From Escherichia coli O157:H7 (GTDB lineage Bacteria > Pseudomonadota > Gammaproteobacteria > Enterobacterales > Enterobacteriaceae), in NCBI RefSeq assembly GCF_013167455.1, contig NZ_CP038328.1: a stretch of DNA of 64,000 nucleotides; one strand, written 5' to 3'. The translations under genes and the position numbers were made by a program. The notes under the pieces are model-generated. The model had not been told where the DNA came from and did not search any database. It saw only the letters and a program-made list of their open reading frames with translations. Position 1 is the first letter of the stretch; each line of letters opens with the position of its first letter. Shown here piece after piece: positions 3,176 through 29,820 of the stretch.

Positions 3176-3496
3176 ATGAACGACAGTGAATTTCATCGCC
3201 TGGCTGATCAACTGTGGCTGACCATTGAAGAGCGTCTGGACGACTGGGATGGCGACAGCGATATCGACTGCGAAATCAACGGCGGCGTGCTGACCATTAC
3301 CTTTGAGAATGGCAGCAAAATCATTATCAACCGCCAGGAACCGCTGCACCAGGTATGGCTGGCAACCAAACAAGGCGGCTACCATTTTGATCTGAAAGGC
3401 GATGAGTGGATTTGCGATCGCAGCGGCGAAACCTTCCGGGATTTGCTGGAACAGGCGGCGACGCAGCAGGCGGGTGAAACAGTCAGTTTCCGCTAA
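3176..3496 (+). CDS. cyaY: Frataxin homolog CyaY (iron-sulfur cluster assembly)
   Basis: 106-aa [36 protein letters not shown]...; acidic N-terminal ridge typical of frataxin. Confidence 0.92.
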
Positions 3497-3535
3497 GATT
3501 GCATGCCGGATAAGCCTCGCTTTCCGGCACGTTCA

Positions 3536-6082
3536 TCACGAAAAATACTGCTGTAATAGCGGCGTATCGTGATCCTGATTGGCAGGCGGCATGTTACCGA
3601 TAGATTTTGTGCGGAACGGAATCACCTGTTCACGACCATCAACCTTCACAATCTGATAGAACTGCGGCAGGTTGAAGTTGATGAAGCTTGAGCCGTAGGT
3701 AAAACGGTCATGCGATGACGAGTAGAAGCGACTGACGTCACGTACCAGCTCCTCTTTGCTGCCTTCGCAGTGGTGATACACCTCAACCCGATTGCTTTCG
3801 TCGAGAATGTAGATATTAAAGCCATTCTCATCTTGCGTTTCTTCGAAAAAGAACTGGATGATCCCTTCGCTGGCAAAGCCGTCCACCACCGCCGGTAATT
3901 TGACGTGATTGGTTTCAACCTGCACTGACAGGCCGTGCAGTTTGTTATGCGAAATAGCGCCATAAAACTCGATGGCGTTCTCCAGTTTCTGTACCGATAC
4001 ATTCAGGCGTTCGAAGAACAAGCCCCAGGTTTGACCAGAAACGCGCAGCGCCTTGAAACGCCCGGTTTCCTGGCGGGTGCTGGAAAGACGCAATTCAATA
4101 CACTCAGAAACCAGTTGCTGCACGCGAGTACGAATTAAGCCGCGCAGATGCTGGCTATAACAGAAGACTTCCACGCTATCTGGCGGTGCGGCGTCCTGAT
4201 GCATTTTGCCGAGAATAGTTTTCAGGGCTTCGATCATCGATTGCTCGCCGTTGAAGTGCAGCGTACGCACTTCATTCCACGAGTTGCGATACAGCAGGTC
4301 AACGCTACCTACCAGGCAATTTTGATTCTCGCCAAAGCTGAAGACATCCAGCTTACGGAAATCAAAATGCACCACCTGATTGCGGAACGCAGCTGTCGGG
4401 TCATATTCCAGGTTAACGATAATCGCCAGATGGCGGATCTCACACGGGCTGTAGAGCGCCTTCGGTGTCGGTGCAGGTAAGCGCAACGGGAAATGGTGCG
4501 ACACGTCGGCGACCATCTCCTGCAACTTAGGCAAATCGACAATGCCGTTACCTTTAATATACAAGCGGGTGCGCGAGGTCAGCAGGCCGTTAAACCATGC
4601 CCACGCCACCAGTTTATTCAGGTAACGGTTATATTCCAGCGGCTGATGGCTGATGATCGACTCAATATTTGGCGCGCGGTTATACAGATACCAACCTGAA
4701 CGGTTAGCCCGGCCCGGCGGCACATAAATAAAGGTCAGATTCGGTTCCGAGAGATCGGGTGAAATCTGCGGGTTTACCAGCGTCACTTTACCTGGTAATG
4801 CTTCAAACGCGGCATACAGCTTACGCGTCAGCACGCCGATATCCTGCGGACTGGCGGAGACGCTAAGGTTATTGCGACGCGCAAAGCGGATCAGATTACG
4901 GTAGCTCTGCATCATCGCGTCGAGCAACTCGTTGTGCGCCTCACGCACCTGATCAATCTTCCAGTTAGCGCGGTTATCGAGCATTGCCAGACGAGCTTCG
5001 TCCCACCCCCACTCGCTCACTAACTGGCTCAACACTGCGCGACGCCAGCCTACGCAGGCGCGTTCACGGCTGAGCTTTTCGCACACTTTTAAATAGAAGC
5101 AGCGACGTACTAAATCCAGACGGGTGAAATCTTCAATCGCCGTCAGGTATTCAGTAACACGCTCCAGCATCATGCAGTAAGGATCGAGGCCAAACGATAC
5201 AATCTCGCCGTCGTGCAAACGCTGTTTGATATCTTTCGCCAGCAGGCGTGGGTTCGGGTATTCCCAGGAATAGGCTTCCAGCAGCAGTGTCTTCAGCACC
5301 GCTTTGTATGGAGAATCGATACTCTTGTAGAGTTGCCAAAGGCTGGCACCGAAGTATTCTTCAGCGGAAAGCGAGCTTAAGCCGCCGAGATCCAGCCATT
5401 CATTTGGCGTCAGCACGCCTTGTGCGTAGAGCGTCATTACGTAGTCATCGTAATGCTCTTCTTCGTCGCACGGCACCATATTCCACAGAATACGCTTACC
5501 GGCGAGACGCACGGCGGTACGATAAAATTCATCAAGCAGCAGTATATGCTGGGTGGAGCCACAATCTTCGCCCCCCAGACTGCCACTCTCGTTGTGGCGA
5601 AAACGGTTTTCATCAATCAGGAAGAAGCTAACTTCCACACCCAGCGAGGCGGCCCAGCTTTCCAGCAGGCTGCATTTACGTTGTAGCAACTGGCGCTCTT
5701 CGCTATCGAGCCAGGATTGATGACAGACCCAGATATCCAGGTCAGAGGAACAACTTTGCCCTACGGACGAGGTGCTGCCCATGGTGTATACACCAGTAAT
5801 TGGAAGCTCACCTTTCGGCGGGTCCTGTACTGACATTCCACGATACAGTTCAAGCTCGTTCAGGTAGTGGCGTTGAGTTTCATCAGGCGTGTAAAGGCAA
5901 ATGCCTTTGGGAACGTTACCATCAAGGTAACCCGGCATTAGCGGATGGTGATAGTGCAACAATGTCGGCAGTAGACTGTAGACCTGTTGGAATGCAGGCC
6001 CCATAGCAGCAAGCGCGCGATCCACACGCAATTGATTTATGGCATCCAGTCTCTGTTTCAGAGTCTCAATATAGAGGTACAA
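3536..6082 (-). CDS. cyaA: Adenylate cyclase (class I), TTG start
   Basis: 848-aa [21 protein letters not shown]...; start codon at 6080-6082 is TTG on the minus strand (caa on +). Confidence 0.95.
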
Positions 6083-6468
6083 GACGTATCGCCTGATTTG
6101 CTACCCGTCATGACTGTGATTCCGCCAACATCAACGGTAACACGCGGCATTCGGGATATTTCGTATGTCAAAGGTAACCGTTACCACTTTTCGCGCCTGG
6201 TTTTTTTAGTTTCACGACGAAAAAATGGTCTAAAACGTGATCAATTTAACACCTTGCTGATTGACCGTAAAGAAAGATGCGCTACATACAAGTGTAGCAC
6301 CGTTTATTCTCTGTAAATTCCTTATTACGACGGCGTGAAACGCCTGTCAGGATCCACTGCCAGACCTCATTTTACGGTTTGCGCAGGCGTCTACGTTTCA
6401 CCACAACACTGACATCACTCTGGCAAGGATGTTAGGATGGACCACGGATGATAATGACGGTAACAAGC

Positions 6469-9430: not shown

Positions 9431-10627
9431 ATGCTAAAAGTGTTATTGCTCTTTGTGTTGCTGATTGCGGGGATCGTGGTTGGCCCGATGATTGCCGGTC
9501 ATCAGGGTTATGTGCTGATCCAGACCGACAACTACAATATCGAAACCAGCGTCACGGGCCTGGCGATCATATTGATTCTGGCGATGGTAGTGCTGTTTGC
9601 CATTGAGTGGCTACTGCGGCGGATCTTCCGCACTGGCGCGCACACCCGTGGGTGGTTTGTCGGGCGTAAGCGTCGCCGTGCACGTAAGCAGACCGAACAG
9701 GCGCTGCTGAAACTGGCGGAAGGCGATTATCAGCAAGTTGAAAAGCTGATGGCGAAAAATGCCGATCACGCTGAACAACCGGTGGTGAACTATCTACTGG
9801 CTGCCGAAGCCGCGCAACAACGTGGTGATGAAGCGCGCGCCAACCAACATCTGGAACGCGCAGCGGAGCTGGCCGGCAATGACACCATTCCGGTAGAAAT
9901 CACCCGTGTACGTCTGCAACTGGCCCGTAATGAAAACCATGCTGCACGCCACGGCGTGGATAAGCTGCTGGAAGTTACGCCACGCCATCCGGAAGTATTA
10001 CGTCTGGCGGAACAGGCGTATATCCGCACAGGTGCATGGAGTTCGCTGCTGGATATTATCCCATCAATGGCGAAAGCCCATGTTGGTGATGAAGAACATC
10101 GTGCAATGCTGGAACAACAGGCATGGATTGGCCTGATGGATCAGGCGCGTGCCGATAACGGTAGCGAAGGTTTGCGTAACTGGTGGAAAAACCAAAGCCG
10201 GAAAACGCGTCATCAGGTAGCGTTGCAGGTGGCAATGGCGGAACATCTTATTGAATGTGACGATCATGATACTGCCCAGCAAATTATCATCGATGGCCTG
10301 AAACGCCAGTACGACGATCGCCTACTGCTGCCGATTCCTCGACTGAAAACAAACAATCCGGAACAGCTGGAAAAAGTGCTGCGCCAGCAAATCAAAAACG
10401 TCGGCGATCGCCCGCTGTTGTGGAGCACACTGGGCCAGTCACTGATGAAGCACGGAGAATGGCAGGAAGCATCGCTCGCCTTCCGCGCAGCGCTGAAACA
10501 ACGTCCGGACGCCTACGATTACGCATGGCTTGCCGACGCGCTGGACAGACTGCACAAGCCGGAAGAAGCTGCAGCGATGCGTCGCGACGGTTTGATGTTA
10601 ACGTTGCAGAACAACCCACCACAGTAG
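9431..10627 (+). CDS. hemY: HemY protein (TPR-containing inner-membrane protein)
   Basis: 398-aa ORF MLKVLLLFVLLIAGIVVGPMIAGHQGYVLIQTDNYNIE...; 2-nt gap after hemX. Confidence 0.9.
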   Translation: MLKVLLLFVLLIAGIVVGPMIAGHQGYVLIQTDNYNIETSVTGLAIILILAMVVLFAIEWLLRRIFRTGAHTRGWFVGRKRRRARKQTEQALLKLAEGDYQQVEKLMAKNADHAEQPVVNYLLAAEAAQQRGDEARANQHLERAAELAGNDTIPVEITRVRLQLARNENHAARHGVDKLLEVTPRHPEVLRLAEQAYIRTGAWSSLLDIIPSMAKAHVGDEEHRAMLEQQAWIGLMDQARADNGSEGLRNWWKNQSRKTRHQVALQVAMAEHLIECDDHDTAQQIIIDGLKRQYDDRLLLPIPRLKTNNPEQLEKVLRQQIKNVGDRPLLWSTLGQSLMKHGEWQEASLAFRAALKQRPDAYDYAWLADALDRLHKPEEAAAMRRDGLMLTLQNNPPQ

Positions 10628-10673
10628 TTCCTTCTCACCCGGAGGCAAGCACCTCCGGGACCTTCCTGACACA

Positions 10674-10880
10674 TAAAAAAACGCCTGCTCTTATTACGGA
10701 GCAGGCGTTAAAACAGGTCTGTATGACAACAAGTGGGTGCTTCACTCAACGTTGTGTCCATGGTGTCTGATGAGGCATAAGCGACATCTGTCAGTGGACG
10801 ATAAGCACCGTAAACGGCTCTGCGTCATTCCGGAGTTTATGAGGCACTAAGGCGAACATAAGAGATGGAATGAGCATCTA
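10674..10880 (-). ncRNA. glmZ: GlmZ small RNA (Hfq/RapZ-dependent activator of glmS)
   Basis: Minus-strand sequence GTAGATGCTCATTCCATCTCTTATGTTCGCC...CGCCTGCTCCGTAATAAGAGCAGGCGTTTTTTT matches the GlmZ sequence as I recall it; ends in an 11-bp perfect stem plus U7 terminator; hemY-aslA intergenic location. Confidence 0.85.
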
Positions 10881-11305
10881 CTCGTTTATTATGCCACAGA
10901 GAATCGGGAAATAACATCCCTTAACACTTGTTATGAGATAATTCTGTAATCCTCTTTGCTTCCTGAGTAATAACTTCCTGAGTGAATATTTAACCTGAGC
11001 TTGATCCTACACATACTTATTATGAATGATAAAATTCATTCAATTAATAACACATATATTAATTGCCGTTAAAACTAAAAACAGCATCAATAATCAACGC
11101 GATATAATAAACCTGCCTTACATATCAACTGCGCCAGAGGTAGGATTGAAAACGCTCTCCTGATTTTTAAATTCATTTCTTGGATAAATAAATAATTTAT
11201 TTTTATCACTATTATTTATGTAATCATCCTGTCAGGGAGAGGGATCTCAATTATCAATGCTTAATTACGTCATCATTTTGTTGACATGAAACCGGAGCAT
11301 TTTGC

Positions 11306-12961
11306 ATGGAATTTTCGTTTTCACCCAAACTTCTTGTTGTTGCTGTCGCCGCCGCTCTTCCTCTCATGGCCAGCGCAGCAGATACCCCGTCAACTGCCAC
11401 CGCGCGCAAAGGCTTTGCCGGATACGATCACCCAAACCAGTATCTGGTTAAACCGGCGACCACTATTGCCGACAACATGATGCCAGTAATGCAGCATCCG
11501 GCGCAGGATAAAGAACCCCAGCAGAAGCTGGCAGAACTTGAGAAAAAAACCGGTAAGAAACCGAATGTGGTTGTTTTCTTGCTGGACGATGTGGGCTGGA
11601 TGGACGTCGGTTTTAACGGTGGCGGCGTGGCGGTGGGTAACCCTACACCAGATATCGACGCCGTTGCCAGCCAGGGGCTGATTTTAACTTCGGCGTATTC
11701 TCAACCAAGCTCTTCCCCAACCCGCGCCACCATTCTCACCGGACAATACTCCATCCACCACGGCATTCTGATGCCGCCAATGTACGGGCAACCGGGCGGG
11801 CTGCAAGGGTTAACCACGCTGCCGCAGTTGCTGCACGATCAGGGCTACGTCACTCAGGCCATCGGGAAATGGCATATGGGGGAAAACAAAGAGTCGCAGC
11901 CGCAGAACGTTGGCTTTGATGATTTCCGTGGCTTTAACTCGGTGTCTGATATGTACACCGAATGGCGCGACGTTCACGTCAATCCGGAAGTGGCCCTGAG
12001 TCCGGACCGTTCTGAATACATCAAGCAATTACCATTTAGCAAAGATGACGTTCATGCGGTGCGCGGCGGCGAACAACAGGCCATTGCCGACATTACGCCG
12101 AAATATATGGAAGATCTGGATCAACGCTGGATGGAATATGGCGTTAAGTTCCTCGACAAGATGGCGAAGAGTGATAAGCCTTTCTTCCTCTATTACGGCA
12201 CTCGCGGCTGTCACTTCGATAACTACCCGAACGCCAAATATGCGGGTAGCTCTCCGGCACGCACCTCGTATGGCGACTGCATGGTGGAAATGAACGATGT
12301 GTTCGCTAATCTGTATAAAGCACTGGAGAAAAACGGTCAGCTTGATAACACGCTGATTGTCTTTACCTCCGATAACGGACCGGAAGCCGAAGTACCGCCG
12401 CACGGACGCACACCGTTCCGTGGTGCGAAAGGATCTACCTGGGAAGGCGGCGTTCGCGTACCGACTTTCGTTTACTGGAAAGGCATGATCCAACCGCGTA
12501 AATCTGACGGTATTGTTGATCTGGCAGATCTCTTCCCAACAGCACTGGATCTGGCGGGGCATCCTGGTGCGAAAGTGGCGAATTTAGTGCCGAAAACCAC
12601 CTTTATCGATGGTGTGGACCAGACATCTTTCTTCCTGGGAACAAATGGTCAGTCTAACCGTAAGGCCGAGCACTACTTCCTCAACGGTAAACTCGCTGCT
12701 GTGCGTATGGATGAATTCAAGTATCACGTCCTGATTCAGCAACCTTACGCTTATACCCAGAGCGGATATCAGGGTGGATTCACCGGCACAGTAATGCAAA
12801 CAGCCGGATCGTCGGTGTTTAACCTCTACACCGATCCGCAGGAGAGCGACTCTATCGGCGTGCGCCATATTCCGATGGGTGTACCGCTACAGACCGAAAT
12901 GCACGCGTATATGGAGATCCTGAAAAAGTATCCACCACGCGCGCAGATTAAATCTGATTAA
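11306..12961 (+). CDS. aslA: Arylsulfatase-like protein (periplasmic, sulfatase family)
   Basis: 551-aa ORF with signal peptide and sulfatase N-terminal motif region ([11 protein letters not shown]...[11 protein letters not shown]). Confidence 0.9.
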
Positions 12962-13128: not shown

Positions 13129-14364
13129 TTACTTACTCACCACCAGCAAATGCGCCTGCATAATGTCGCTGGCCGGGCGACCGTGCGCCAGCAAATCAGC
13201 CATTGCTTTAAGATATGGCGGTAGATGGCGGAAATAACGCTGATACCCGGCACACAAATAATTCAGTCCCGGTTTGCCGCTGGCATCGAGCATGAAGCGG
13301 TGTTTCGGGCAGCCTCCCCAACATGCTTTTAACACGTTACAACTGCGACACTGCGCCGGTAATTGCTTAAATTTATCTTCACCAAACACCTGCTGTTGCG
13401 GGGAATCGATCATTTCTGCAATTGTTTGCTGGTGCATATTCCCCAGTCGATATTGCGGATAAACATAGTGATCGCAGGCGTAAACGTCGCCATTGTGCTC
13501 AACAATCACCGAGCGCCCACAGGTTGGCTGATGATGGCAAACCGCACCCGGCGCACCGACAAAATTGGCAAACGCCCATTCGATATTCATCACGAAAATC
13601 TTGCCGACGTCGCGTTTAATCCAGTGGTCGAATATCGCCACCAGAAATTCACCAAATTCATCGGGGCGCACAGACCATTCCGTCAGTTCCCCCTGAATAT
13701 CACCAGGCGCATGTAGTTTCAGTCCTTCGCGGGCAGTCGTTTCATCAGCCAGGCGCTCGACCACCGGAATAAACTGGATGAATTCGACTCCCGCATCGCA
13801 CAAAAAATCATAAACCTGTAACGGTTGCTGCGCGCTGGTGCGGTTGACGCAGACCAGCACGTTATAGTCGACATGATGTTTTTGCAGGAGCGTCAGGGCA
13901 CGCATCACCAGTTTATGCGTGGGTCTGCCGCCTTTTGTCACGCGATATTGATTGTGGATCTCAGCCGGACCATCCAGCGATAACCCAACAAGAAAATGAT
14001 TTTCTGCCAGAAATGCACACCATTCATCATCGAGCAGTACGCCGTTAGTCTGGAAGCTGTTACTTATCTTCCTGCCAGCACCATATTTCGCCTGTAGCGC
14101 CACGGCACGGCGGTAAAACTCCAGCCCGAGTAGCGTTGGTTCGCCGCCCTGCCAGGTAAAAGCCACTTCGTTTTGCGGTTCGCTGGCAGCGATATAGTGA
14201 CGGACATACGCTTCCAGCGTGTCATCGTCCATATGCGTGACTGGCTTTTCGCGGTAAAGGGATTGTTTTTCGAGATAAAAACAGTAGTCACAGTTCAGAT
14301 TACAATCGGAACCGCTCGGTTTCGCCATCACATGAAAAGCACGCGTTGGAACCTGTTGCAGCAT
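13129..14364 (-). CDS. aslB: Anaerobic sulfatase-maturating enzyme homolog (radical SAM)
   Basis: Translation MLQQVPTRAFHVMAKPSGSDCNLNCDYCFY... (CxxxCxxC radical-SAM motif); track ORF extends 10 codons upstream. Confidence 0.9.
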   Translation of the reverse strand: MLQQVPTRAFHVMAKPSGSDCNLNCDYCFYLEKQSLYREKPVTHMDDDTLEAYVRHYIAASEPQNEVAFTWQGGEPTLLGLEFYRRAVALQAKYGAGRKISNSFQTNGVLLDDEWCAFLAENHFLVGLSLDGPAEIHNQYRVTKGGRPTHKLVMRALTLLQKHHVDYNVLVCVNRTSAQQPLQVYDFLCDAGVEFIQFIPVVERLADETTAREGLKLHAPGDIQGELTEWSVRPDEFGEFLVAIFDHWIKRDVGKIFVMNIEWAFANFVGAPGAVCHHQPTCGRSVIVEHNGDVYACDHYVYPQYRLGNMHQQTIAEMIDSPQQQVFGEDKFKQLPAQCRSCNVLKACWGGCPKHRFMLDASGKPGLNYLCAGYQRYFRHLPPYLKAMADLLAHGRPASDIMQAHLLVVSK

Positions 14365-14475: not shown

Positions 14476-14504
14476 AAAACAAAAAACCCCGCCGAAGCGG
14501 GGTT
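14476..14504 (-). terminator. Intrinsic terminator of the tRNA operon (downstream of proM)
   Basis: Minus-strand hairpin AACCCCGCUUCGGCGGGGUU followed by U-rich run. Confidence 0.7.
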
Positions 14505-14510
14505 CAAAAT

Positions 14511-14587
14511 TGGTCGGCGAGAGAGGATTCGAACCTCCGACCCACTGGTCCCAAACCAGTTGCGCTACCAAGCTGCGCTACTCGCCG
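14511..14587 (-). tRNA. proM: tRNA-Pro (anticodon UGG)
   Basis: 77-nt reverse-complement match to canonical E. coli tRNA-Pro incl. encoded CCA. Confidence 0.95.
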
Positions 14588-14629: not shown

Positions 14630-14716
14630 TGGTGCGAGGGGGGGGACTTGAACCCCCACGTCCGTAAGGACACTAACACCTGAAGCTAGCGCGTCTACCA
14701 ATTCCGCCACCTTCGC
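14630..14716 (-). tRNA. leuT: tRNA-Leu (anticodon CAG), distal copy
   Basis: 87-nt match to E. coli tRNA-Leu(CAG) with long variable arm and CCA. Confidence 0.93.
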
Positions 14717-14736
14717 ATTGTCACAACTTCTAATAA

Positions 14737-14813
14737 TGGGGTGGCTAATGGGATTCGAACCTCCGACCCACTGGTCCCAAACCAGTTGCGCTACCAAGCT
14801 GCGCTACTCGCCG
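14737..14813 (-). pseudogene. Chimeric tRNA-like element: tRNA-Pro(UGG) 5' body fused at the T-loop to the tRNA-His 3' T-stem/acceptor strand
   Basis: Read 5'->3' on minus strand: CGGCGAGTAGCGCAGCTTGGTAGCGCAACTGGTTTGGGACCAGTGGGTCGGAG (proM-identical) + GTTCGAATCCCATTAGCCACCCCA (hisR-identical); acceptor and T stems no longer base-pair. Confidence 0.85.
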
Positions 14814-14855
14814 AAATACTGCTTTTTGAATTTTTAGTTCAATTCTTTAAAGTCG

Positions 14856-29632: not shown

Positions 29633-29820
29633 AATGCATGCTCTCAGAGAAAATTATTAGCAGAAGTATAACCACGAAGACCTTTATTCAGAAGGGAAAG
29701 TCCGTTCCGAACCCACCAGTCCTGTGCAAAAATTAACCATTTGATATGCAAATTGCATAACATGCCAGCAAATTCCAGGAATTTTCCTAACATCGCCAGC
29801 GCGGCATTAAGATTACAGAT

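Follow-up and report, generated by a model that had tools for sequence, protein, structure and literature searches.

The AT-rich block that precedes aslA in the stretch of DNA analysed here (64,000 nucleotides of an Escherichia coli O157:H7 genome, called the window below) is almost certainly the 424-bp divergent spacer between glmZ and aslA, which belongs to the core genome of E. coli O157:H7 and has a three-part anatomy. The three parts are the sigma70 core promoter of glmZ (10882–10934, minus strand), recognized by its sequence motifs and its identity with K-12; a poorly conserved middle segment of 28.6% GC (10935–11074), delimited by divergence and invariant columns; and a constrained region of 32.9% GC beside aslA (11075–11305, plus strand), delimited by divergence and invariant runs, which presumably contains the aslA promoter, operators and 5′ untranslated region. 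The best explanation is that the spacer is a divergent control region of glmZ and aslA in which H-NS-type proteins keep aslA low, and we give this explanation a probability of roughly 0.6.

Locus and gene order

With the full-length gene of the small RNA GlmZ on the minus strand at 10675–10881, the block becomes a divergent control region. This gene, glmZ (also called sraJ), encodes a 207-nt RNA whose transcription starts at 10881, and it was identified with the Rfam model RF00083 (GlmZ_SraJ), which matched over model positions 1–214 of 214 with 218.4 bits (gathering score 60) and E = 1e-57. An intrinsic terminator on the same strand, with an 11-bp stem followed by a T-run, was found at 10675–10709 by a terminator scan and agrees with the 3′ hairpin of the Rfam model. 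According to the annotation, hemY occupies 9431–10627 on the plus strand. On the other side of the spacer, aslA (11306–12961, plus strand; from the list of open reading frames, RefSeq WP_000395856.1) encodes an arylsulfatase-like protein of 551 aa, and the annotated aslB (13129–14364, minus strand) encodes an anaerobic sulfatase maturase of the radical-SAM type. The next feature, at 14484–14587 on the minus strand, consists of the annotated tRNA-Pro gene proM (14511–14587) and the terminator of the tRNA operon (14484–14505, terminator scan); together they are the conserved far boundary of the aslA-aslB cassette.

The region is 100% identical to that of another O157:H7 genome (NZ_AP018488.1), and at least 80% of an 801-bp query containing the spacer and its flanks was found in 5415 of 5426 complete E. 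coli genomes. RefSeq/PGAP records carry no glmZ annotation, and through this gap the spacer gets misread as a plain 680-bp aslA upstream region. The sequence-only reading gave the block as 10900–11305, which is essentially right, the actual limits being the glmZ start at 10881 and the ATG of aslA at 11306. Its description of the block as lying upstream of aslA was correct in that the block directly precedes this gene, but incomplete, as the same DNA is just as much the upstream region of glmZ on the opposite strand.

Base composition

The GC content of 10900–11305 (406 bp) is 31.5%, compared with a mean of 52.3% for the window (z = −5.5; the standard deviation of 406-bp windows across the 64 kb is 3.8% GC). 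Only 0.11% of the 406-bp windows are equally low in GC, and every one of these overlaps the block; the minimum, at 10885, is the lowest such stretch in the 64 kb. Short A/T-rich signals follow the same pattern. AATAA occurs in 7 copies (17.2/kb against 1.1/kb window-wide) and TTATT in 3 copies (7.4/kb against 1.2/kb), and A/T runs of at least 6 reach 41.9/kb against 7.4/kb, so that the pentamers and the A/T runs are 6–16 times denser than the background. The neighbouring genes have a normal composition (aslA 52.8%, aslB 51.5% and hemY 54.9% GC). Thus, the sequence-only reading was correct in calling the block markedly AT-rich, in noticing repeated TTATT/AATAA tracts and in contrasting it with GC-balanced surroundings.

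Because coding sequence is always GC-richer than spacers, the 35 annotated intergenic regions of the window (mean 44.6% GC, sd 7.1) were added as a fairer baseline. Against these, the true spacer (10882–11305; 31.8% GC, that is, 68% AT over 424 bp) has the second lowest GC content. The single region below it is a 42-bp tRNA spacer, and the glmZ-aslA spacer is therefore the lowest of real length. A promoter scan showed that 4 of the 16 promoter-like hexamer pairs found in 20 kb lie inside the 424 bp, about 15 times the background density.

The glmZ promoter

Reading toward glmZ, the sequence is GGATGTTATTTCCCGATTCTCTGTGGCATAATAAACGA followed by G. The promoter has the −10 element CATAAT (10888–10893), an extended −10 TG (10895–10896) and a weak −35 element, ATGTTA (10912–10917), the last assigned by our reading of the sequence and not taken from a published figure. 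It is conserved to about −53, with 65–85% of the columns in 10882–10934 invariant among five Escherichia lineages, and O157 is identical to K-12 over 10882–10973. In K-12, everything upstream of −40 is dispensable, since its deletion leaves promoter activity unchanged, and mutations in −35/−10 abolish glmZ expression (PMC3045617). GlrR did not bind the fragment from −424 to +32 in an electrophoretic mobility shift assay (EMSA), and glrR and rpoN mutations had no effect on glmZ; Göpel et al. (NAR 2011) concluded that K-12 glmZ has a single constitutive sigma70 promoter (PMC3045617). In EHEC, expression of glmZ::lacZ was unchanged by deletion of qseF or qseB (PMC3903284). Consistent with these results, no match to the sigma54 motif TGGCAC-N5-TTGCA at −24/−12 was found near the glmZ start within 3 mismatches, and no GlrR site (TGTC-N10-GACA) was found in 10882–11305 with up to 2 mismatches allowed. 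The glmZ promoter is independent of sigma54 and of GlrR/QseF.

Genomic SELEX with the sigma70 holoenzyme of K-12 gave the glmZ-aslA spacer a peak of 0.98 of the genome maximum; only the promoter of tmRNA (ssrA) is above it, at 1.00, the next peaks are 0.93 and 0.86, and the majority of sites are at 0.03–0.36 (PMC3946193, Table S1A). The glmZ promoter site is among the strongest RNA polymerase (RNAP) binding sites known in vitro. The glmZ end of the block is not silenced; it carries this constitutive sigma70 promoter and the second-highest SELEX peak. The extended −10 sigma70 promoter of glmZ takes up the first ~50 bp of the spacer on that side.

Constraint in the spacer and the aslA side

We aligned the spacers of O157, K-12, two B2-type E. 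coli, E. albertii and two further Escherichia genomes, which were deposited as E. coli and have a divergence about that of E. albertii. Fourfold-degenerate sites of aslA and hemY, with a divergence of 0.27–0.40, served as the reference. The glmZ gene is near-invariant across Escherichia (divergence p = 0.01), and its core promoter (10882–10926) diverges by 0.18–0.22. The divergence of 10927–11075 is 0.33–0.37, the same rate as at the fourfold-degenerate sites, and that of 11076–11305 is 0.10–0.18, which is 2–4 times below them. A 20-bp conservation profile gave the same three-part pattern. In the middle segment (10935–11074), only 13–57% of the columns are invariant among five Escherichia lineages. 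These ~140 bp are the most AT-rich part of the spacer, 28.6% GC compared with 32.9% in the aslA-proximal part, and contain a 15-bp tandem duplication (10959–10988) and a palindrome, CAATTAATA-N7-TATTAATTG (11041–11065).

On the aslA side, invariant runs were observed at 11089–11097, 11115–11125, 11139–11152, 11154–11164, 11188–11196 and 11212–11219. The longest run, TCAATTATCAATGCTTAATTACG, spans 23 bp at 11247–11269, and another at 11288–11302 contains the Shine-Dalgarno sequence GGAG (11294–11297). An inverted repeat links 11154–11163 with 11232–11241. Judged from the aligned sequences, the ~230 bp beside aslA are under purifying selection, and therefore carry a sequence-specific function. 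This constrained segment would hold the aslA promoter, operators and leader. The best sigma70-like candidate for an aslA promoter in O157, predicted by a promoter scan, is TTGAAA-16-TAAATT at 11146–11173 on the plus strand. Its −35 element is invariant, and its −10 element was created by substitutions of the O157 lineage at 11168–11169; these are two of the six substitutions that distinguish O157 from K-12 in the aslA-proximal half (11168, 11169, 11179, 11180, 11205 and 11281), and they give O157 the better −10-like hexamer (TAAATT). Apart from these differences, the K-12 aslA-glmZ region is the same locus, with the same order hemY, glmZ, aslA, aslB and proM, and with glmZ and its promoter identical out to 10973.

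Structured RNA was looked for in the constrained part, which gave a fold z of −1.0, a covariation term of −0.11 and compensatory changes in 2 of 61 pairs. Rfam gave no match other than GlmZ at E ≤ 1 over 10000–12000. A structured leader or riboswitch of aslA was rejected on these grounds: no Rfam match, a fold z of −1.0 and no covariation. Two open reading frames that could encode hidden small proteins, of 45 aa on the plus strand and 40 aa on the minus strand, were also rejected, as their starts are lost or stops are gained in other Escherichia. The sequence-only reading described the expression conditions of aslA as poorly understood, and the regulation of this gene is indeed uncharacterized; the sole statement that a literature search on it returned is an indirect effect of RpoE in E. 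coli K1.

The spacer withstands an IS1 insertion accompanied by a deletion, as well as small tandem duplications. It is also used as a permissive locus of the chromosome into which reporters are inserted (PMC13069688).

Comparison of glmZ loci among genera

Species-representative genomes were scanned with a pattern of the GlmZ 5′ end, which gave 120 loci; four were chance matches with no GlmZ homology, leaving 116. aslA adjoins glmZ in only seven of these: in E. albertii, two further Escherichia, two Kluyvera, Pseudocitrobacter faecalis and one other Enterobacteriaceae genome. All seven spacers have 30–36% GC, no sigma54 motif and no perfect GlrR site, and among the 116 loci an AT-rich spacer was found only where aslA is adjacent. 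In genomes without aslA, the tRNA operon argX-hisR-leuT-proM ends 145–530 bp upstream of glmZ, and these proM-glmZ spacers (n = 69; median length 340 bp) have a mean of 43–44% GC and a minimum of 35%. The sigma54 promoter TGGCAY-N5-NTGCW is present in 89 loci without aslA; in most Enterobacterales other than the aslA-bearing ones, the DNA upstream of glmZ is a short spacer with ~43% GC that carries a sigma54 promoter and, as a rule, perfect GlrR sites. The difference in GC between aslA-adjacent and other spacers is strong (p = 8e-6 in a Mann-Whitney test), but the test ignores kinship, the seven loci representing perhaps three or four independent lineages. Klebsiella, Raoultella and some Citrobacter also have no sigma54 motif. 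Because their spacers stay at 39–48% GC (39–44% in Klebsiella), low GC tracks aslA and not the type of glmZ promoter.

Genomes that have aslA and genomes that lack it are homologous over proM and the terminator up to ~40 bp past proM, and the homology resumes only in the final ~25 bp of the promoter of glmZ. These breakpoints mark out the AT-rich block, aslA and aslB as one lineage-specific segment of ~3.55 kb between proM and glmZ. The identity of AslA to its counterparts in other genera is 84–91%, roughly parallel to that of HemY (90–92%), and because of this parallel the cassette appears to be old and not a recent import. Composition of the spacer is conserved between Escherichia and Kluyvera, but its sequence is barely alignable. 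In Escherichia, Kluyvera, Pseudocitrobacter and the one other Enterobacteriaceae genome, the AT-rich spacer goes together with the aslA-aslB cassette, which is placed between proM and the glmZ core promoter. Klebsiella may have lost aslA by deletion from an ancestor that carried it; its upstream DNA showed no remnant homology beyond about −27 to −7 of the promoter.

It is conceivable, though unlikely, that the cassette displaced an ancestral GlrR/IHF/sigma54 enhancer and thereby rewired the GlmY/GlmZ system, making glmZ constitutive in E. coli, with the block acting as an insulator. The cassette might have arrived by insertion, or by recombination between the flanking proM and glmZ RNA genes. 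If this were true, the insulator would part a silent sulfatase gene from a very strong small RNA promoter within 424 bp.

H-NS and the possible silencing of aslA

The sequence-only reading called the block typical of silenced promoters bound by H-NS, and that H-NS silences aslA is plausible, though not proven. A high AT content promotes the binding of H-NS, and a tract with 68% AT over 424 bp is typical of its targets. Published binding data are ambiguous: Table 1 of Shimada et al. (2014) flags an H-NS SELEX site in the aslA<>glmZ spacer, and in Table S2A of the same paper the HNS flag is missing for aslA<>glmZ and kept for yifB<>ilvL (PMC3946193). Of the four RpoD-bound divergent spacers of the window that appear in Table 1, the two flagged HNS, glmZ-aslA and yifB-ilvL, are the two most AT-rich. 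In a preprint on IPOD-HR, glmZ appears only in a transcription-factor table. Taken together, we consider that H-NS probably occupies the block in vivo, and that control of aslA by H-NS is possible at somewhat less than even odds.

Two sequence properties that would support, without strictly defining, an H-NS target were computed. Curvature, which the sequence-only reading had proposed as a check, did not bear the proposal out: according to a wedge model (Bolshoy/Trifonov), the spacer is not curved, with end-to-end/contour ratios of 0.953–0.988 against a window mean of 0.966, and in 97% of composition-matched shuffles the most curved 120-bp segment is more strongly bent than that of the spacer. 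This model does mark two other places in the window as curved, the DNA upstream of the rrn 16S gene and the hemC<>cyaA spacer. For the H-NS motif TCGATAAATT, the block offers a single match, at 8 of 10 positions, and the window is not enriched for it. The gene bodies beside the block are not AT-rich, in contrast to those of classical xenogeneic targets, and the use of the spacer as a permissive insertion site (PMC13069688) also counts against the H-NS explanation.

The block does not silence glmZ, because removal of the DNA upstream of −40 does not raise the activity of the promoter on a plasmid (PMC3045617). Any silencing would stop short of the glmZ promoter, which by its activity would bound the silenced tract. 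On the aslA side, AT-richness and the ~15-fold density of promoter-like sites may make the DNA a preferred target of H-NS-type nucleoid proteins. These proteins, together with idle RNAP, would hold aslA low in the laboratory until some signal or activator relieves it.

Alternative explanations

A control region has to be weighed against a purely passive origin of the composition. According to the passive explanation, which we regard as rather unlikely, a long and weakly constrained spacer was made when the aslBA cassette met glmZ and then drifted to an AT-biased equilibrium; that binding of H-NS and RNAP is an incidental by-product with no regulatory effect on aslA is, to the same degree, rather unlikely. 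Drift would agree with the fourfold-site rate of divergence in the most AT-rich ~140 bp (28.6% GC) and with Escherichia and Kluyvera spacers that are alike in composition and barely alignable. Tolerance of the IS1 insertion with deletion, of tandem duplications and of engineered cassettes points in the same direction, as do the dispensability of the DNA upstream of the glmZ promoter (PMC3045617), the lack of curvature and the lack of enrichment of the H-NS motif. However, the aslA-proximal part (231 bp, 32.9% GC) comes close to this AT-richness yet is clearly constrained, and because it is constrained its low GC is not mere decay. Moreover, the other proM-glmZ spacers, which are about as long (median 340 bp), keep ~43% GC, and it is established that H-NS binds AT-rich tracts of such a length largely whatever their origin. 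In another explanation, transcription of aslA begins at a promoter that stands back-to-back with that of glmZ (TTAACA-18-TGTAAT, 10921–10950, predicted in Shimada 2014), which would produce an AT-rich untranslated leader of ~350 nt and place control at a later step than initiation, be it Rho-dependent premature termination, for instance, or translation. The predicted hexamers are indeed present at 10921–10926 and 10945–10950 (PMC3946193), conservation reaches about 10950, past the −40 that glmZ needs, and the plus strand, with 77 C and 58 G and a GC skew of −0.23 to −0.26, resembles a Rho-utilization site; the very high RNAP SELEX signal also lies at the glmZ end (PMC3946193). We nevertheless consider such a leader improbable. 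The promoter is only a best-match prediction, from a table that gives glmZ the promoter TTGAGA-17-GATGAT, far from the proven one (PMC3946193); the segment just past the predicted start has no detectable constraint; and the conserved part shows neither structure nor covariation, with Rfam empty.

Two further explanations, both of them extremely improbable, concern the history of the locus. One of them regards the block as a decayed sigma54 enhancer, in which GlrR/QseF and IHF sites like those that drive glmZ in Salmonella and Yersinia have been eroding where they stand since E. coli went over to sigma70. Such an enhancer lies at the equivalent position upstream of glmZ, IHF sites are AT-rich, and a gradual loss of sigma54 control has been described (Göpel 2011, PMC3045617). 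Nevertheless, 10882–11305 contains no TGTC-N10-GACA even with 2 mismatches, there is no −24/−12 motif near the glmZ start, GlrR does not bind −424 to +32 (PMC3045617), and no homology to the upstream DNA of Salmonella, Citrobacter or Enterobacter was found from the glmZ start to the proM flank. Real sigma54-type spacers have ~43% GC, and the AT-rich spacer follows aslA and not the loss of sigma54, as seen in Klebsiella (no sigma54, 39–44% GC). With no GlrR or sigma54 sites even when mismatches are allowed, this explanation is effectively refuted. The other regards the block as a recently acquired foreign AT-rich islet, a classical target of xenogeneic silencing, to which low GC and a patchy distribution among genera would correspond. 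Against it, AT-richness is confined to the 424-bp spacer, with aslA and aslB at 51–53% GC, and nearly all E. coli genomes (5415 of 5426) carry the region. AslA identity (84–91%) roughly follows that of HemY (90–92%), which suggests an old, largely vertical history, and the annotation of the segment shows no integrase, att-like repeats or genes of mobile elements.

Relation to known systems and significance

The position upstream of the conserved glmZ is the same as that of the sigma54/GlrR(QseF)/IHF regions of glmZ and glmY in Yersinia, Salmonella and most Enterobacterales. A resemblance is still visible in the ~17 bp that directly precede the glmZ start, TGTG-CATAAT here compared with TGTGCAATAAT in the sigma54 type. 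Unlike those regions, the spacer has no −24 TGGCAC and no GlrR sites or binding, and its GC content is 32% compared with ~43%; its length is 424 bp to aslA, compared with 145–530 bp to proM in loci of the sigma54/GlrR type. Spacers of core genes that are bound by H-NS (the 'type-A' csgD-csgB spacer and yifB-ilvL) are likewise long, AT-rich, divergent and bound by RNAP in vitro, and the glmZ-aslA spacer is flagged as an H-NS SELEX site in Table 1 of Shimada et al. (PMC3946193). It differs from them in that the flag is absent in the supplement of that paper, no curvature is predicted, the motif is not enriched and the glmZ promoter is constitutively strong. So-called promoter islands (Ozoline group) are a further class for comparison. 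They are reportedly AT-rich, with dense promoter-like signals, strong RNAP binding and little productive transcription. The glmZ-aslA spacer resembles them in its ~15-fold density of promoter-like hexamers and its near-maximal RNAP SELEX signal and differs in having a genuinely productive promoter, that of glmZ.

Much about this spacer was already known: the glmZ promoter had been dissected, the loss of sigma54 described and RNAP binding tabulated, and H-NS binding had been tabulated, ambiguously (PMC3946193). What we add is modest: a map that divides the spacer into three parts by constraint, the observation that across genera an AT-rich spacer goes with an adjacent aslA, the breakpoints at which the cassette begins and ends, and a caveat on the published H-NS flag. 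The block is ordinary intergenic DNA of a genome that is among the best studied, and its direct importance is small. aslA has been scored as a virulence factor in surveys of ExPEC and K1, and GlmZ controls LEE and EspFu expression in EHEC. The constrained 230-bp segment and the invariant 23-bp element are concrete targets for mapping the promoter and regulators of aslA. In addition, insulation of the glmZ promoter from an AT-rich and possibly H-NS-coated tract helps to interpret constructs and insertions at this popular 'neutral' site.

Conserved elements of the aslA-proximal spacer

In the aslA-proximal part of the 424-bp divergent spacer between glmZ and aslA (window 10882-11305), the widely spaced arms of a conserved inverted repeat, GCTCTCCTGA ... 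TCAGGGAGAG (11154-11163 / 11232-11241), flank an AT palindrome, TAAATAAATAAT / ATTATTTATGTA (11185-11222). Across Escherichia, repeat and palindrome alike show no or almost no variation, and no compensatory changes were found in either of them. The inverted repeat and the palindrome could be paired protein-binding sites. The longest invariant run in this part of the spacer, the 23-bp element TCAATTATCAATGCTTAATTACG (11247-11269), is unchanged apart from a duplication in one genome. In that genome, E. coli TUM10008 (L126), TCAATTA is tandemly duplicated (7 bp) within the element, at the equivalent of window 11247-11253.

Six spacer positions differ between O157 and K-12: 11168, 11169, 11179, 11180, 11205 and 11281. 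In O157, the change of CC to TA at 11168-11169 yields TAAATT, 16 bp past an invariant TTGAAA, and the change of A to T at 11281 yields a perfect TTGACA just 20 bp ahead of the aslA ATG. By the wedge model, the strongest predicted intrinsic curvature in the window lies at four sites (6131-6181, 29671-29721, ~49921 and ~56031); two of these maxima sit in the hemC-cyaA and rho-wecA spacers, one close to 49921 and one upstream of the rrn 16S gene, and the AT-rich block is not among the most curved sites by this model.

Annotation and promoter of glmZ

The glmZ gene (10675-10881) is absent from the PGAP annotation of the complete genomes NZ_AP018488.1 and NZ_CP152467.1 (RefSeq records). Because this feature is missing, the hemY-aslA gap resembles 680 bp of empty intergenic DNA. 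When species-representative genomes were scanned for the GlmZ 5' end, four of the 120 pattern hits (L053, L058, L074 and L086) were rejected as chance matches, since they had no GlmZ homology past the 25-nt pattern; they come from MAGs labelled uncultured proteobacterium (RUG13362), Methanosarcinaceae, Burkholderiaceae and Gracilibacteria.

According to a 2024 preprint (PMC11230228, Table 1), AraC is a candidate for repressing the GlmZ promoter, from plasmid Miller assays in casamino-acid medium. Repression of this promoter (10882-~10934) by AraC would temper its label as "unregulated". A different glmZ promoter, TTGAGA-17-GATGAT (11250-11223), was predicted in PMC3946193, ~340 bp from the experimentally proven one. 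The H-NS flag of the aslA-glmZ spacer is inconsistent within the same paper (Table 1 versus Tables S1A and S2A), whose Table S1A writes aslA as "asiA". In E. coli PSS-16 (L127), the glmZ start is preceded at a distance of ~50 bp by an IS1A element (3333-4100, corresponding to window ~10931 onward), which has removed the remaining spacer together with the 5' portion of aslA; the glmZ core promoter is kept.

Other features of the window

A PemK/MazF-family toxin gene (~37088-37537) is annotated alone, with ppiC and rep on either side and no partner antitoxin in the annotation. Next to the aslB end of the cassette formed by aslA, aslB and the spacer, leuT-proM is partly duplicated in tandem: the O157 tRNA region (14630-14855, especially 14751-14813) has two copies of tRNA-Leu, separated by a 63-nt piece from the 5' end of proM (tRNA-Pro). 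The corresponding site in Kluyvera cryocrescens (L110) carries two full copies of proM.
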